A stretch of 11,321 nt of DNA from a virus (Duplodnaviria; Heunggongvirae; Uroviricota; Caudoviricetes): the IMG/VR virus record IMGVR_UViG_2700989272_000002, positions 1 to 11,321 of that record. One strand, given 5' to 3'. The position numbers and the translations under genes are program-made. How positions within the stretch are numbered: position 1 is the stretch's first letter; each line of letters opens with the position of its first letter. Positions 860 through 8,239 of this stretch are shown in pieces. Below the pieces are notes generated by a model, which made no database searches, was not told where the DNA came from, and worked only from the letters and a program-made list of their open reading frames with translations.

Positions 860-3800
860 TCAATGTTCGCTTCCTGTTAACTGCCGGACAAGTGCAACCA
901 GTTCGCTTACCTGATTTTCCAGAGTGCTGATCCGGGTGCCTGCTGTTGCCAGATTTTGACGTAGCGTTGTGTTTTCCTCTTCCAGCGCGGTAACGCGATC
1001 ATCTGTTTCACGGGCGACCTGAACAAGTAAACCCGTCACGGCGGAGTAGTCAACATTAAGATAGCGAGTTTCTTCGCGTAGCTCGTTGCCGTCAACGGTC
1101 GGACCTTGCAACTCTTCACCATAATGAGTAAACGATCCCACAGCTTCTGGTATCGCCTCCATTACTTCCTGTGCAATAACGCCAGCATAAGGCATCCCGT
1201 TTTCCCTGAGCGTGTAGGTGTATCCGTTCATTTTACGGATTGCTTTCGTCGCGTCGCTGATAACGAGAATATCGTCTTTAAGGTCGCGGTCTGATGACTG
1301 ATTCAGCGTTGTGCAATTAATAGCGCCATTTACATCAAACAACTGGCCTGCTGACGTTTTTTGCGCATAAAACAGATACGCAGCAGACGTTCCAACCTCA
1401 AAAACGTTTTGTCGATCACTTGATCCCCATACTTTTGCGGCAAATGATAGTTCTGTATTACCTAAGTTCTGTAAAACAAAACGATTTCCAGTCCCTGTTT
1501 GTTTTGTAAGAGTTAAATCAACAGTTGAGTTAACCTCATCCTTGTTGATAGTGAGCGCCTGCGCTTTAGCCCCGTTAACAGCACCTGTTTTGAGTTGAAC
1601 CGCGCCGTCATTACCATTTAACAGTATCTCAGCTCCGCTAAAGAAATTTTTTAGCGACAGCATCTTACTTACGCCGACTGATGAACCCAACGCCCACGCG
1701 AGAGAATTACCGGTGCTATCAAACCCACGTACAAAGCAATCCATTTTGCTATAGTCTGACGTGCTTCCAAGGACATCAATTCGCCCTCCGCCAGATTTTA
1801 CCGGGTTAGATGTGGTTAATGACCTGACAGCAAGATCGGTAGATGAATTGAGATCGTCTACTGTTAGTAATTTCTTCCATTCCTGAATCGTCCCTGCCTC
1901 AATTGTTCTTCCCCAAAAACCGGAATTTCGACCTCCGAACTGTACAGCGTAATTTTTACTAAATTGAACATGTATGCCGCCGAGGTTCATAGAACCAGCG
2001 GGGCCGTTTGCACCGCCTGAGATCGGTTTAAATTTTTGTATATTATCGGTGTGTTGGGCGTTCCAGTCCTGACCTGTTATCGTTGATATACCTGATCCGG
2101 TTGCAATAAAGCCAGACGCTTTAAGATTTTGCACATCAAGTCTGTCGTTTGCAAAATTATATGAAATTGCGGTGCTGGTGCTTCCGGCATCATCATAATC
2201 GCTTTTATGAATAAACCAGTTTCCACCATTAGCAATGAGAGTATAAGTAGGCGTGTTAGCCGGGCGATCTGTTTCATTAAATCTTATTGCCGGGTTAGCA
2301 CTATTTATTTGTAAAGGTTTTTCGACCGTTGATTTCAGTATCGCACTATCTACAATTAAATTACCTTCTGAGGTAAAGTCTAGATATTTTGTAGCACCAG
2401 CTGAACCACCGTATGTAAATCTTATTGTTAATCGACCTTGCTCATTTGGAAAAGTCTGAACATACATATCAGCGGCAAGGCGCACAGTGTTATCATTTGC
2501 TAACAGTCTCGTATGGAGCATCCCGCCAGTAGTGTATGCGCCAGTAGAATCACTAGTCCTATCGAGAAATAGACTATTAAGCTGAGGGCTGTTATCCCTG
2601 CCTAATCCAAGATTAGTTCTGGCACCATCAATAGTTGCCGCGCCAGTGCCACCATGAGAAACATCAAGCGGTATCCATTTTTTTTGTGTATCGCTGTAAC
2701 AACCCCATGATGAGGCGGTTAAACCCAGGCGCATGGATTTATCATGGTTATATAACCATGTTTCGCTATTCAATTGGTCAAGACGGTCCACTTCATTTTT
2801 GCGAGCGTGGCGTGTCCATTGCGGGCCTATTGTCGGACTCCAGCGATAGGTATAAAGCGAGCGAGTAGTCCATCCCTGAAATACACCTGTATACGCTGGT
2901 GTTCCATCTACCTGACTAATAAAACCAGTAAGATTACCTTCGCCTGATGCAATAGACGGAAAACCTGTTGCGGAAGCAAAAATGCGCATAAAGCCAATAT
3001 AACCGGATGGATCACCGGAAATATCAGGACAATTGCGCGGTGATGATCCCAAACCGATGTTAGCACCAACAATACCCTGAGCATGGTTGCGATAATTAAG
3101 TGCGTCCGCCGCAGATTTCGCCGCGTTTGTTTCACTGGATTTAGCATTAGTTTCGCTGGCTTTAGCGTTTGTTTCGCTGCTCTTTGCTGCTGCCTCGCTA
3201 TTTTTCGCGTTGGTTTCTGATTTTTTGGCGGCTGTCGCGGAGTTTGCCGATGCAGTTTGTGAGTCTGCTGCCGCCTGTGCGCTGTTATCCGCATTCGTCT
3301 CAGACGTTTTTGCGGCCTTCGCGGAATTTCCTGCCGCCGTTGCCGAGGAAGCTGCGCTACTGGCGCTCAAGGATGCGTTCGTTTCTGATGATTTCGCTGC
3401 CTCTTTTGAGGCCGCCGCATCCCGGGCTGAGGTGGCAGCTTCTGACGCTTTCGTGGTCGCGGTGGATGCAGAAGTGGCGGCTGATTGTTCTGACGTTTTC
3501 GCCGCACCGGCACTGGTAGCTGCCACGCTTTTTGAGGACTCTGCAGCGGCAGCACTTTTTGAGGCTTCAGTGGCCTTTGTTGATGCCGTTCCTGCGCTGG
3601 AAGACGCTGACTGAGCCGACGAAGCGGCCTGTCCGGCTGACGTGCTGGCTGCACGTGCTGAGCCTGTAGCATCAGTCGCATGGGTTGCCGCCTCACGGGC
3701 TGATGTGCCGGCATCGCTGGCTGACTTCTTCGCGGCTGCCGTGTCCTGTGCCACTGCGGACGCGTTACGCGCCACCTCTTCCACCATCAGTTCAAAGCGG

Positions 3801-4111
3801 CGCAGTGCCTCCGGACGGGCATCATCCTCCGTCATGGCACCGAGAAAATCATTCAGCGTACCCGGTTGTGAGTCTTCATACACGGTGATGGTCCCGGCAT
3901 GCGATGGCGGGAAGCCTTCCACCAACAGAATAACGCTGTACTGACCGTACTCAACGTCCATGCTGTAACGCCCTGCTTCATCCGGATTTTCAGATGCCAC
4001 CGTGTTCACCACCACCGTGGTGCTGTTACGTTTTGCTTTCAGCTGGATTGTGCAGTTCTGTACCGGTTTACCTGCACCGTCTTTCAGTACACCTGAAATC
4101 TTTACTGCCAT
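860..4111 (-). CDS. stf: side tail fiber protein (lambda Stf-like N-terminus; Ala/Ser/Thr-rich repeat section; long distal region; C-terminal intramolecular-chaperone-like domain)
   Basis: Minus-strand ORF of 1085 codons. The N-terminus MAVKISGVLKDGAGKPVQNCTIQLKA... matches my recollection of lambda Stf. The ORF track starts at 4117, but that codon is GTG; the first ATG is at 4111 and gives the MAVKISG start, so I call the start there. Stop is TGA at 860-862. It sits directly after lom, as stf does in lambda. Confidence 0.85.
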   Translation of the reverse strand: MAVKISGVLKDGAGKPVQNCTIQLKAKRNSTTVVVNTVASENPDEAGRYSMDVEYGQYSVILLVEGFPPSHAGTITVYEDSQPGTLNDFLGAMTEDDARPEALRRFELMVEEVARNASAVAQDTAAAKKSASDAGTSAREAATHATDATGSARAASTSAGQAASSAQSASSSAGTASTKATEASKSAAAAESSKSVAATSAGAAKTSEQSAATSASTATTKASEAATSARDAAASKEAAKSSETNASLSASSAASSATAAGNSAKAAKTSETNADNSAQAAADSQTASANSATAAKKSETNAKNSEAAAKSSETNAKASETNAKSSETNAAKSAADALNYRNHAQGIVGANIGLGSSPRNCPDISGDPSGYIGFMRIFASATGFPSIASGEGNLTGFISQVDGTPAYTGVFQGWTTRSLYTYRWSPTIGPQWTRHARKNEVDRLDQLNSETWLYNHDKSMRLGLTASSWGCYSDTQKKWIPLDVSHGGTGAATIDGARTNLGLGRDNSPQLNSLFLDRTSDSTGAYTTGGMLHTRLLANDNTVRLAADMYVQTFPNEQGRLTIRFTYGGSAGATKYLDFTSEGNLIVDSAILKSTVEKPLQINSANPAIRFNETDRPANTPTYTLIANGGNWFIHKSDYDDAGSTSTAISYNFANDRLDVQNLKASGFIATGSGISTITGQDWNAQHTDNIQKFKPISGGANGPAGSMNLGGIHVQFSKNYAVQFGGRNSGFWGRTIEAGTIQEWKKLLTVDDLNSSTDLAVRSLTTSNPVKSGGGRIDVLGSTSDYSKMDCFVRGFDSTGNSLAWALGSSVGVSKMLSLKNFFSGAEILLNGNDGAVQLKTGAVNGAKAQALTINKDEVNSTVDLTLTKQTGTGNRFVLQNLGNTELSFAAKVWGSSDRQNVFEVGTSAAYLFYAQKTSAGQLFDVNGAINCTTLNQSSDRDLKDDILVISDATKAIRKMNGYTYTLRENGMPYAGVIAQEVMEAIPEAVGSFTHYGEELQGPTVDGNELREETRYLNVDYSAVTGLLVQVARETDDRVTALEEENTTLRQNLATAGTRISTLENQVSELVALVRQLTGSEH
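3119..3229 (-). repeat. about five tandem 21-nt repeats inside stf encoding SETNAK-type heptapeptides
   Basis: The motifs gtttc and tttagc/ctttgc/tttcgc recur at a 21-nt period (for example gtttc at 3129, 3150, 3171). The protein reads KKSETNAKNSEAAAKSSETNAKASETNAKSSETNAAK. They lie within a longer Ala/Ser/Thr-rich low-complexity region at about 3104-3766. Confidence 0.7.
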
Positions 4112-4120
4112 ATTCACCCC

Positions 4121-4149
4121 ACAAAAAAGCCCGCCTGAACCGGCGGGCT
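4121..4149 (-). terminator. rho-independent terminator-like hairpin between lom and stf (minus strand)
   Basis: On the minus strand, a 7-bp GC-rich stem (plus-strand gcccgcc 4129-4135 paired with ggcgggc 4142-4148, 6-nt loop) is followed by TTTTTT (complement of the A-run at 4123-4128). It lies 27 nt after the lom stop and about 10 nt before the stf ATG. Confidence 0.6.
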
Positions 4150-4175: not shown

Positions 4176-4775
4176 TCAGAACTTATAACCGACACCCACG
4201 ATGAAACCGTCAGTGCGCCAGTCGCCACTGCCGGAGCCTTCATAAGCAATATCAATGGCCACCGATTCGGTCGGGTTAAACTGCACGCCAGCTCCCCACG
4301 CCAGAGACGTGTTGCTGTGGCGACCGTCATCACTTCCGGTCAGCACATCGTGCGTTTTCCCCTTGTTGTCAGTTACGCGGAGATAATCCCCGGAGAAAGT
4401 CGACACACGGCTGTAAGCCACACCCGCCATCGCATACGCGCTGAACCATTCATTCACGCGTACAGACGGCCCCGCCATCACGCTGAACCAGCGGTTACGT
4501 AAGGAATCTTCATGCCAGCGGGTATCGCTGTAACGGGTCAGCTGGCGATTCTTGTCTCCTGCATAGCTGAATGACGTCACCAGCCCTAGTGTGTCCGTAA
4601 ACTCATAACGGTATTTCACGTTAATCCCGTTCAGATCATCGCTGCCGGGAACGTTCGTCGAGGCATGAAGATAGCCCGCGCTCAGCGTGGACTGATGTTC
4701 AGACGCCCATGCAGGCGCACCGGATACGGCCAGACAGATGGCTGCGGACAAAATGGCGGCATAAAGTTTACGCAT
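4176..4775 (-). CDS. lom: outer membrane beta-barrel protein Lom (Ail/Lom/PagC/OmpX family), phage moron
   Basis: 199-aa ORF with a signal-peptide-like N-terminus (MRKLYAAILSAAICLAVSGAPAWA). Its C-terminus, ...VDIAYEGSGSGDWRTDGFIVGVGYKF, matches my recollection of lambda Lom. A GAGAGG Shine-Dalgarno-like motif sits about 8 nt before the ATG. It occupies the lambda position between J and stf. Confidence 0.9.
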   Translation of the reverse strand: MRKLYAAILSAAICLAVSGAPAWASEHQSTLSAGYLHASTNVPGSDDLNGINVKYRYEFTDTLGLVTSFSYAGDKNRQLTRYSDTRWHEDSLRNRWFSVMAGPSVRVNEWFSAYAMAGVAYSRVSTFSGDYLRVTDNKGKTHDVLTGSDDGRHSNTSLAWGAGVQFNPTESVAIDIAYEGSGSGDWRTDGFIVGVGYKF

Positions 4776-4798: not shown

Positions 4799-4824
4799 TA
4801 AAAAAGGCGCCAGAAATGGCGCCC
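4799..4824 (-). terminator. rho-independent terminator-like hairpin between J and lom (minus strand)
   Basis: On the minus strand, stem GGCGCC (4818-4823) paired with GGCGCC (4806-4811) around a 6-nt loop, followed by TTTTTT (complement of the A-run at 4800-4805). It lies 20 nt after the J stop and about 24 nt before the lom ATG. Confidence 0.55.
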
Positions 4825-4843: not shown

Positions 4844-7800
4844 TCAGCTAATCGTGATACCTGCTGTGGATTTCTTCATCACCACAACCAGCAAATCGCT
4901 GATACTGGCTGTGGGATACCAGTCATTTACCAGCCACGCTGATACCGAAAACTCCAGCGTCATGTGACCGCGACCAGCAGGCATATCAATAACACCTGTA
5001 TAAACCAGCGTATTATCCAGCGCGGTACGGTTATAAATTTCAGCACCGTTTTTCTTCACTATCAGGCGGCATGACGAATAAATATCGTTATTCTCCCGCT
5101 CATGTTTAGCGCCACGAAACGCCACCGCGGGAATAACAATCTGCCGGTCAAACGGCTGATCGTCATAAACCCTGACGGTAATGGTCCCTGATGGCCACCG
5201 CTCCGGTGCACGGGAGTCCCGGGGGAAAGCTTTGCCCACTGTTTTAACGAGATCGCCTTCAATCTGGTTCGCGGACAGTTTTCCCAGAACCCGACAGTTC
5301 TCGTTAATCGTGACATTGTTGAGCGTCCCGGCGTTCGCATTCACACTGCCACTGATATCCGCATTTTTAGCGGTCAGCTTTCCGTCCGGTGTCAGGGAAA
5401 ATACCGGTGGATTTCCACCACTGGTAATGGTGGGGGCCGTCAGGCGTTTGAGGAACACGTCGTTCATGAATATCTGGTTGCCCTGCGCCACAAACATCGG
5501 CGTTTCATTCCCGTTTGCCGGGTCAATAAACGCGATACGATTGGCGGCAACCAGAAACTGGCTCAGTTTGCCTTCCTCTGTATCCTCCATGCTGAGGCCA
5601 AGCCCCGCGACATAATGCTTACCGTCTTCGGTCTGCTCAATTTTGACGCCCCACATGGCGTTCCATTTATCGTTAGCGTCCTTCCACTCTTTCGAAAACT
5701 CCTCCAGTCTGCTGGCGTTATCCTCCGTCAGCTCGACTTTTTCCAGCAACTCCTTGCCGAGATGGGATTCGGTTATCTTGCCTTTGAAAAAATCCAGGTA
5801 ACCTTCCGCATCATCGCTCGCCCGACCGACGGCCTCCACAAATGCCGATTTGCCAACGGTGTTCACACTGCGAACGTAAAAATAATAATCATGGCCCGGT
5901 TTGATATTGATACTGGCGGCTATCCAGTACAGCCCCGTGCCAAGATAGCGGGCTGTGGTTTCAACCTGCCTGATATCGGTAATCCGCTTTTCCGAGAACC
6001 AGAACTCAAACTGTACCGTCGGATCATAAACCGCAAGATGCGGCGTGGCGGTTATCTGAAAATAGCCCGGCGTCAGCTCAATCCGCGACGGTGCTGCCGG
6101 TGCGGCGATCCGGAACGATACCGATGCCGGATCGCCCTGCTGTCCCCACGCATTTACCGCCCGGACCGTCAGCCTGTAGTTCCCCAGCGCCAGTTGCGTG
6201 AAGCGGTATGTGGTTTCCGTCGTCCTGGCCGTGCTGACCAGCCGCTCACTGCCGTCATCCGCTGCCACGGTCAGGCGAAGCATAAAGCTCACGCCCTTCA
6301 CCACCTTCGGCGTGTCCCATCGCGCCAGCACCTGATATTCCCCGCTGTCTGCGGTGACTTCGGCGGTCAGATGCTGCACTGCTGGCGGCGTGACACCATT
6401 CACCGTGCCGCTCTGGTCACCGTCAAAGTGCGCCCCGTTATCCACGATGGCTTCTTTCTCCGGTACATGCTGCACGGCAGTGATGGCATACGTGCCGTCG
6501 TCGTTCTCACGGATACTCACACAGCGGAACAGGCGCTGGCGCAGCGTCGGCAGCTTCAGCCCCCACACGCTGTACTCGGCAACGCCGTCAGGAACCCGGC
6601 TCACTTTCACCTTCACGCCGTCGGTGACGGACTGGACCTCCACGCTGACCGGATTGCCACTTCCGTCAACCAGGCTTATCAGCGTGGTGCCGGAGGATGG
6701 CAGCGTGATTTCACGGTCGAGCGTCAGCGTCCGGGTCTGGCTGTTCACCGCCAGCACGCGCCCGCCGGTGCTGATACCGGCATAGTCATCATCGCAGATT
6801 TCAATGACATCGCCCGGTACATGGCGAAGCCCTTCTGCGCCGACGCTGAAATCCACGGTCTGCGTCTCCAGCAGTTCTGTTTTAATCAGCCACAGCCCGG
6901 CGCGGTGCGCCTGCCCCCGACTGGTACAGCCAAACGCATCCATCTTCGTGACGTTACGACCGTAACGGGCAATGGCCTGCGAGTCCTCCACAAGCTCTGT
7001 TGCCGTCTCCCAGCCGTTATCCGGGTCAATCCAGTTCACTTCAACGGCATTATGGCGGTCTTTCAGGGCGCTGAAGCTGTAGCGGAATGGTGCGCCATCA
7101 TCCGGCATCACCACATTACTGCGGTTATAGGTCCACACCTTATCTGATGGTCGGTCCTGCACGAACGTCAGCGTCTGCCCGTTCCATACCGGCATACAGC
7201 GCATCGCCGAGCAGAAATCACTGAGCACATCCCACGCCTTGCGCTGTGTGGTCAGGTACGCATTACAGGTGATGCGCGGCTCCGTGCCGCCAAAGCCGTC
7301 CGGCACCGACTGGTCGCAGTACTGGCCGATGACATACAGCGCCCATTTATCCACATCCGCCGCACCAAGACGTTTCCCCATGCCGTAGCGCGGATGGGTC
7401 AGCATATCCCACAGACACCAGGCCATGTTGTTGCTGTATGCCGGTTTAAACGTTCCGTCCCAGATACCGCTGTATTGCCGCGTCTGCGGGTTATAATTCG
7501 ACGGCACCTGCAGAATACGCCCGCGAAGATGATAATTACGGCTCACCTGCTGGCTGCCGAACTGCTCCGAGTCCACCTGCACGCCGACCAGTGCCGTGTT
7601 CGGGTAGCACTGTTTCACATCGATAATTTCGGTGTATGACGACCAGAGCGTTTTGTTCTGCAGCTGGTCTGTGGTGCTGTCCGGCGTCATCCTGCGCATC
7701 CGGATATTAAACGGGCGCGGCGGCAGGTTATCCACCACCACCGAGGCCAGATACTGTGAAGTGGTTTTACCCTTAATGGTGATGTCTTTTTCCGTCACCC

Positions 7801-8239
7801 AGCCACCGTTACGTTGTATCTGAACCAGCAGGCGGACTTCCGATGGATTCCTGTCCCCCTTTGAGGTGGTTTCCACCAGTGCCTGCACACCGAAGGTAAA
7901 ACGCAGTCGGTCAATGTTTGCCGACGTGATGGTCCGGGTGATCGGCGTGTCGTATTTCACTTCCGTACCCAGCACCGTCTCGGAGCCGGAGGATTCAAAT
8001 CCCTCCGGCGGAGTCTGCTCCTGCTCACCAGCCCGGAACACCACCGTGACACCGGCGATGTTGGTATTCCCCTCACTGTCCAGCACCGGCGTACTGTTCA
8101 GCAGTACGCTTTTTAATCCATCCACCGGACCTTCAATCGGCCCTTCACTGATGGCGTCTATCACGCTCAGCATCTGGGATGATTTCAGGTTGTCCTTCGC
8201 TTCGCGCGGGGTATGCCCCTTACTGCTGCCTTTACCCAT
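4844..8239 (-). CDS. J: tail tip / central tail fiber protein J (host specificity protein)
   Basis: 1131-aa ORF. The N-terminus [20 protein letters not shown]... and most of the length match my recollection of lambda gpJ (1132 aa). A GAGGA Shine-Dalgarno-like motif immediately precedes the ATG. Stop is TGA at 4844-4846. The last ~150 residues look different from lambda. Confidence 0.95.

Follow-up and report, generated by a model that had tools for sequence, protein, structure and literature searches.

The J protein of bacteriophage lambda (gpJ; P03749; PDB: 8xcj, gpJ713-LamB; 8xck; 8iyk) uses LamB as its receptor. The trimeric receptor-binding domain (RBD) puts four distal loops into LamB, and the RBDs move apart at their lower end; the central straight fibre is compacted by newly formed hydrogen bonds, a twist travels upward, and this is followed by a flip of the helical shaft and opening of the hub (PMC11101478). 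J residues 960–1132 are hypervariable among prophages, and natural indels and variation in J homologues concentrate at four hot spots, 1012, 1048, 1077, and 1107 (Maddamsetti et al., 2018; PMC6646904). The classic natural exchange of a J C terminus is that of the phage 434 host-range J (lambda h434; OM418627), which switches the receptor from LamB to OmpC.

Two further natural gpJ C termini, A8 and 1A2, were grafted onto lambda J and gave OmpC-mediated DNA delivery into lamB-deleted cells (Brödel et al., Nature 2024; PMC11338833). A8 accepted the OmpC proteins of both K-12 and EDL933, whereas 1A2 accepted EDL933 OmpC but not K-12 OmpC. In a lamB ompC double deletion carrying EDL933 OmpC (G17), 1A2 reached 98% delivery at an MOI of 242, and at the top MOI it gave at least 76% delivery for 20 of the 23 natural OmpC variants; it failed on G1 (MG1655/K-12; ≤2%), G2, and G40. 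In wild-type MG1655, where LamB is expressed, 1A2 delivered to 5% at an MOI of 50 versus 98% for lambda J at an MOI of 174 (PMC11338833). The source sheet for Extended Data Fig. 2, panel C, of the same study lists 1A2 values that equal those of the K-12 panel; these conflict with the text of the paper and with the G17 and Extended Data Fig. 8 data, and the sheet is probably a copying error. For A8 gpJ, a closed state (PDB: 9wca) and an open state (PDB: 9wcb) have been deposited, the latter containing A8 gpJ713 with three OmpC chains (G17, EDL933).

Here, we describe the J gene of a viral stretch of 11,321 nt (the window), in which a lambda-type J body is joined to a C-terminal domain of the 1A2 class.

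The window encodes an intact J protein with a lambda-type body

An uninterrupted open reading frame on the minus strand, at 4844..8239, encodes an intact protein of 1131 amino acids. It was assigned as gene J, the tip attachment or central tail fibre protein, from its translation, six Pfam models, and homology to lambda. All six Pfam matches scored above their cut-offs and followed the lambda order (FNIII-A_GpJ, Phage-tail_3, Ig_J, Ig_J_second, Phage_Tail_Tip, and Ig_GpJ_C); the protein thus has the full domain architecture of a lambda-type tip attachment protein J, including the C-terminal Ig_GpJ_C domain.

Full-length BLASTP against lambda J (NC_001416, 1132 aa) gave 1019 identical residues out of 1131 (approximately 90%), and the differences are concentrated at one end. 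Over residues 1–981, the two proteins are identical at 953 of 981 positions (97.1%) versus 65 of 150 (43.3%, with one single-residue gap) over residues 982–1131. A previous sequence-only reading had described this J as near-identical to lambda gpJ except for its last ~150 residues, and the alignment bears this out: the C-terminal 150 amino acids are far from essentially identical to those of lambda. The C-terminal peptide quoted in that reading is exactly the end of the translated protein.

On the basis of lambda identity, residues 1 to ~964 (5346..8239, minus strand) make up the lambda-type part, comprising the hub, two FNIII/Ig domains, the alpha-helical shaft, and the central straight fibre. 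At the DNA level, lambda 14000–18450 is collinear with the window at 95.0% identity in a single blastn HSP. The J body is only ~78% identical in DNA to that of the VT1-Sakai prophage (Sp15, E. coli O157:H7; AP000400). The minus-strand genes read, in lambda terms, as the end of H, then M, L, K, I, J, lom, and a side-tail-fibre gene (stf), which is the tail-module order expected for J and is shared by the annotated VT1-Sakai and E. coli IAI1 prophage loci. Open reading frames of lambda M, L, and I length are open in the window, as are lom and stf.

The J C terminus is a recombined cassette

The divergent receptor-binding (or "specificity") region covers residues 982–1131 (4847..5296, minus strand), with the Ig-like RBD proper at approximately 997–1122, as delimited by the drop in identity, Pfam, and a structural model. 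In 60-nt bins, DNA identity to lambda lies between 0.85 and 1.00 through J nucleotide 2940 and between 0.45 and 0.63 from nucleotide 2941 to the end of the gene. In local blastn, the lambda-like HSP stops at window position 5294 (lambda 18450). This step from ~95% to ~55% identity over 450 nt far exceeds the chance variation along J.

The window was aligned with lambda, the VT1-Sakai prophage, and the IAI1 prophage in a four-way alignment, and identity was scored in 100-nt bins. At 5400–5301, the window is closest to lambda (0.92; IAI1, 0.88; VT1-Sakai, 0.88). In the adjacent bin, 5300–5201, identity to lambda is 0.50, compared with 1.00 for IAI1 and 0.99 for VT1-Sakai. Informative sites in this alignment place the recombination joint in the conserved linker ...(A/S)GTLNNVTI at J codons ~965–976 (5312..5345, minus strand), and map it to ~5345–5319: lambda bases are present at 5348–5345, with codons 964–965 reading GGC AGT as in lambda, and Sakai/IAI1 bases are present from 5319 onward, with prophage-type bases from codon 974. 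The interval of divergence proposed in the sequence-only reading, 4844–5300, fits these data, with the true joint slightly upstream. The engineered gpJ chimeras of Brödel et al. (PMC11338833) were fused in the same linker, at lambda residue 964.

Gradual drift by point mutation was ruled out as the source of the divergence, because identity changes stepwise and because the same 450 nt are 99%–100% identical in other prophages with different J bodies. The divergent part of J is therefore a recombined cassette, and the gene is a natural chimera that is lambda-type from codon 1 to approximately 965–973. The window protein was also compared with the IAI1 prophage gpJ (WP_000515723; NC_011741 844826–848305). 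All 150 RBD residues of that protein are identical to those of the window, the RBD DNA is 99.8% identical, and the following spacer and lom are of the same type. Unlike the window protein, IAI1 gpJ is 1159 aa long, carries N965 and S970 in the linker, and differs in the alpha-helical shaft, where its segment at window residues ~835–866 has 28 additional residues.

The exchange extends into lom

The gene downstream of J, lom (4176..4775, minus strand), encodes an Ail/Lom outer-membrane protein of 199 aa (Pfam Ail_Lom, E = 3e-120) and belongs, like the RBD, to the non-lambda block. Amino acid identity of the window Lom is 46% with the lambda protein but 88% and 92.5% with those of VT1-Sakai and IAI1, respectively. 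In blastn, DNA homology to lambda returns only at window position ~4303, close to the 3′ end of lom, so that the non-lambda block measures ~1 kb and takes in the RBD, the 68-nt spacer behind J, and the larger part of lom. Thus, lom was exchanged together with the RBD cassette of J. The spacer contains a terminator-like GC hairpin followed by a T-run (4805..4824, minus strand), 20 nt past the J stop codon; the pattern scan found two such sites in the region against 1.5 expected from shuffled sequences, which makes the hairpin a weak signal on its own.

The divergent C terminus has the Ig-like J receptor-binding fold

Pfam family PF12421 (Ig_GpJ_C) matches J residues 1001–1131 with an E value of 9e-39. 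An AlphaFold model of the RBD, built with 15 sequences, consists of a beta-sandwich at approximately 997–1122 with a mean pLDDT of 81. When the model was searched against the PDB with Foldseek, the top matches were 9wcb, 9wca, 8xck, and 8xcj (TM 0.70–0.72, probability 1.00). The Pfam match, the model, and the Foldseek matches all identify the Ig-like beta-sandwich of J RBDs, and the divergent C terminus is thus, by its modeled fold, still an Ig-like J receptor-binding domain. Among PDB chains, the closest in sequence is "A8 gpJ 713" (E = 1e-65), followed by lambda gpJ (E = 1e-44).

Loop limits were taken from the predicted model together with the published hot spots (PMC6646904); residue ranges for the lambda loops L1–L4 are absent from the text of PMC11101478. 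Predicted loop 1, residues 1004–1017 (5189..5230, minus strand), corresponds to hot spot 1012; it is non-strand in the model, is an indel site between RBD classes, and is identical to loop 1 of Sakai and 1A2. Predicted loop 2, residues 1048–1051 (5087..5098, minus strand), has the sequence RENN and corresponds to hot spot 1048. Predicted loop 3, residues 1074–1076 (LDN; 5012..5020, minus strand), matches hot spot 1077, where the 434-type RBD has an indel, and predicted loop 4, residues 1104–1115 (4895..4930, minus strand), corresponds to hot spot 1107 and is one residue shorter than in lambda. In the alignment of RBD classes, these hot-spot positions carry the indels that separate the classes.

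The window RBD belongs to the 1A2/VT1-Sakai class

The 150 C-terminal residues were compared with phage records by tblastn, and the matches fell into discrete classes. The closest class, at 93%–95% identity, contains VT1-Sakai, PPompW prophages, many long-tailed Stx2a phages, 2G7b, PhiR5_1, and vB_EcoS-640R1; OmpC is the known receptor for 1A2, a member of this class. The second, at 60%–65%, contains mEp460_4F5, several Stx1a phages, and A8, for which the receptor is also OmpC. Lambda, which uses LamB, stands at 43%, and the h434 type, which uses OmpC, stands at ~40%.

The 1A2 gene sequence came from OCR-damaged PDF text in the Nature supplement, with five illegible codons and several corrupted ones. 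Frameshift-tolerant dynamic programming was used to align this DNA with the window C-terminal peptide. Of 145 readable 1A2 residues, 131 are the same in the window; among the others, several plainly reflect damage by the OCR. Since 1A2 matches VT1-Sakai at all readable positions except one, it can be identified as the O157 Sakai-type RBD. Over residues 982–1131, the window RBD aligns with that of VT1-Sakai at 93.3% identity without any indel, and with 1A2 at ~94% identity over readable positions. The four variable loops are equal in length, and the junction lies in the same conserved linker; the window RBD is a member of this class. VT1-Sakai J differs from the window protein outside the RBD, where its divergent body is split by mutation and that of the window is lambda-type. 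The likeness to 1A2 is one of sequence, and for 1A2 itself the use of OmpC, and not LamB, was established experimentally.

The other classes are separated from the window by both identity and indels. The A8-class RBD has a short loop 1 (…PRTNSYASG…) and a long loop 2 (…NFNSNNQQSYWYS…), whereas loops 1 and 2 of the window have the lambda length. Compared with the window sequence, A8 lacks 4 residues in loop 1 and carries 5 extra ones in loop 2, and the two RBDs are 63.7% identical; they share the fold (TM 0.70) and the conserved C-terminal strand ...(S/T)IS. The 434-class RBD, at ~40% identity with other indels, is likewise a separate class. The lambda RBD, 43.3% identical, differs in all four loops.

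The window allele of the RBD is not new. Of 5426 complete E. coli genomes in a collection, 3496 contain matches of at least 80% identity to the 457-nt RBD segment (median, two copies each), and 164 records of the collection match it at 99% identity or above. Since DNA of this class is so widespread, the novelty of the cassette is low; the class is common and already described. The whole 11.3-kb window had no match at 99% identity or above among complete E. coli genomes and phage records, the best matches being 94%–98% identical with mosaic coverage. Our literature searches found nothing relevant on the receptors of the related isolates 2G7b, 2H10, ev099, mEp460, and the PhiR phages, and no reports on Stx-phage J and OmpC.

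The window allele differs from the 1A2/Sakai allele at ten residues, with a low dN/dS ratio

Ten substitutions separate the window RBD from that of VT1-Sakai (given as window residue, position, Sakai residue): R1042S, R1048K, N1050H, N1051T, K1062R, V1079I, T1081S, R1090H, D1106N, and S1124A. Five of the ten are located in loops predicted by the model, including three in loop 2 (R1048K, N1050H, and N1051T) and one in loop 4 (D1106N). The dN/dS ratio between the two RBDs is 0.16 overall, 0.35 in the loops, and 0.11 elsewhere. Strong positive selection between the two alleles was thus ruled out, and the overall ratio argues for conserved function with, at most, fine-tuning.

The main alternative to a plain 1A2-like specificity is that these ten substitutions have retuned a 1A2/Sakai-class RBD to another subset of OmpC alleles, to another porin such as OmpF, or to both, given that porin use in lambda and phi21 can be shifted by a small number of mutations. 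The J protein of phi21 acquires OmpC use with one mutation and OmpF use with a few more, and the OmpC allele range of A8 already differs from that of 1A2. The substitutions named above for loops 2 and 4 cluster in predicted hot-spot loops, the dN/dS ratio is higher in the loops than in the rest of the domain, and public proteins of the 1A2 family show many variants of the same two loops. Against this, the ratio is below 1 in the loops as well as overall, loop 1 is identical to that of 1A2, there are no indels relative to 1A2, and the host that carries an identical RBD has an EDL933-like OmpC, the type that 1A2 accepts. We therefore consider such retuning quite unlikely. The proposal that the window/IAI1 allele is a functionally distinct sub-type of 1A2, with another OmpC-allele range or dual porin use, is also unlikely, if a little less so. 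If it were true, the allele would be a natural snapshot of an arms race between the RBD and OmpC, and the gpJ toolbox could reach OmpC variants beyond those accessible to A8 and 1A2, for example G40.

The same ratio bears on the idea that the prophage is defective and the cassette a leftover with no current role in adsorption. Truncation or frameshifting has reduced many database relatives to J fragments (P0023, P0026, P0034, P0035, and P0110), VT1-Sakai J is itself annotated as split by mutation, and, as noted above, none of the complete genomes in the collection has the whole window at 99% identity or more. The window J, however, is uninterrupted over 1131 codons, its neighbours (the M-, L-, and I-length frames, lom, and stf) are open as well, and a dN/dS of 0.16 points to selection on the protein, making decay very improbable; moreover, a defective prophage would leave the binding partner of the domain the same.

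OmpC is the likely receptor of the window J

We regard it as likely that the C-terminal RBD of this chimeric J, which belongs to a lambda-like E. coli prophage, docks on OmpC rather than LamB. The reason for favoring OmpC is that 1A2, the closest tested relative, uses it and that the next class, A8, has been solved in complex with it. Judged by homology, the exact window allele most likely uses OmpC too. The earlier suggestion of a different receptor or a LamB variant is supported in its first part, by homology to the OmpC-using 1A2 and A8 (over the RBD, ~94% and 63.7% identity, respectively, with ~40% for h434, in the alignments with OmpC-type J proteins). Its second part fares poorly, as 1A2 barely transduces LamB-positive K-12.

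Continued use of LamB, perhaps the LamB allele of the natural host, would make the divergence a product of co-evolution with LamB variants. The fold and domain family are indeed those of the lambda RBD, and phi21 J uses LamB. The lambda RBD is only 43% identical, though, and the partner in the nearest solved complex is OmpC. The 93%-identical 1A2 works through OmpC in lamB-deleted cells and gives 5% on LamB-positive wild-type K-12, so that retention of LamB appears highly improbable.

For OmpC docking, the IAI1 strain provides a natural point of comparison; its OmpC was examined as a stand-in because the RBD of the IAI1 prophage is identical to that of the window. In this single host, OmpC is EDL933-like, not K-12-like, at two surface-loop indels (GSVSGEG-MTNNG and the TIAGRNY/VINGRNY insertion). 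This OmpC type fits an RBD that takes EDL933-type but not K-12 OmpC. The expected targets of the window RBD would be EDL933-type and most natural OmpC alleles, but probably not K-12 OmpC; A8, which takes K-12 OmpC, differs from the 1A2 type in this respect.

In the mechanism that we propose, the knob at the far end of the central tail fibre would consist of three Ig-like RBD copies, whose variable loops would dock on the trimeric porin OmpC, not LamB. The open-state A8-OmpC entry indicates that the trigger principle described for lambda also operates with OmpC. The signal-transmitting parts of the window J are lambda-type; for example, residues 902–933 in the central straight fibre are identical to lambda. 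We therefore expect the lambda trigger to work here with OmpC in place of LamB: OmpC binding would spread the RBDs, a twist would pass up the central straight fibre, and the tail tip would open for DNA ejection. Overall, the window protein resembles lambda gpJ in architecture, in sequence over residues 1–981 (97%), in RBD fold, and presumably in trigger mechanism. It differs from lambda in the RBD (43% identical), in the receptor, which is LamB for lambda, and in the adjoining lom product (46% identical).

Discussion

The elements of this interpretation are individually familiar. Hypervariability of the J C terminus, receptor switching by C-terminal exchange in lambda h434, and OmpC use by the 1A2 class are all published, and our data leave the current understanding unchanged. 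The locus shows, at the nucleotide level, how the specificity region of J is exchanged as a module at a conserved linker; such exchange was known before, and the linker is the very point now used in biotechnology to retarget lambda particles. For the prophage itself, the RBD sequence gives a probable receptor for the tail tip, OmpC of non-K-12 alleles. The practical value lies in host-range prediction for this prophage and in one more natural allele for RBD engineering.

A second mosaic boundary within J

A second mosaic boundary was located inside the tail-tip protein J, at approximately window positions 5500–5800 (residues ~815–915). Across this interval the window sequence is still lambda-like (87–99%), whereas the comparison prophages, E. 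coli IAI1 and VT1-Sakai, fall to ~60%. IAI1 J also carries 28 additional residues in the region of the alpha-helical shaft compared with the window J. The shaft thus looks like one more part of the protein that can be exchanged.

Genes downstream of J

The non-lambda block that contains the J receptor-binding domain (RBD) also holds the lom gene (window 4176–4775, minus strand). The lom product shares 92.5% identity with its IAI1 counterpart and 88% with that of VT1-Sakai, against 46% with lambda Lom, and DNA homology to lambda returns only at ~4303, close to the 3′ end of the gene. Terminator-like GC hairpins followed by a T-run, both on the minus strand, were found directly past the J stop codon (4805–4824) and directly past lom (4128–4149). 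They are only suggestive as terminators, since the two found are no enrichment over the 1.5 expected from shuffled sequence.

The side tail fibre gene (860–4117, minus strand) encodes a 1085-amino-acid product with a lambda Stf-like N terminus (85% DNA identity to lambda 19458–20491) and a long, low-complexity middle section rich in Ala and Ser, in which there is a single short tandem repeat of 21 nt (3129–3179). A Peptidase_S74 intramolecular-chaperone domain sits at the C terminus (residues 942–993) and is followed by a coiled coil; this S74-type distal end is unlike the Stf/Tfa system of lambda. Downstream of the gene is a 124-nt remnant (699–822) that matches the 3′ end of tfa in lambda (22412–22535) at 81% identity, and the equivalent IAI1 site is occupied by a pseudogene annotated as a partial "tail fiber assembly protein". 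The remnant looks like a scar left when the distal end of the fibre was replaced.

Integrity of J and possible triggering of HepS

Many public relatives of the window RBD occur in frameshifted or truncated J fragments (protein handles P0023, P0026, P0034, P0035, and P0110), and the annotation of VT1-Sakai J (L006 5729–9201) describes it as split by a mutation. Decay of J seems to be common among resident prophages; in contrast to these relatives, the window J is intact.

In the published source data for gpJ C termini grafted onto lambda J (PMC11338833; Extended Data Fig. 2, panel C), the 1A2 and A8 values given for the EDL933-OmpC strain are those of the K-12-OmpC panel and conflict with the paper's text, its G17 data, and its Extended Data Fig. 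8 data, probably because of a copy error in the sheet.

A 32-residue J peptide (residues 902–933) has been reported as a trigger of HepS, the abortive-infection nuclease of Gifsy-1 (PMC13043305). The corresponding window residues (5441–5536) are identical to lambda, F924 included; judged by this peptide identity, the window J would trigger HepS.
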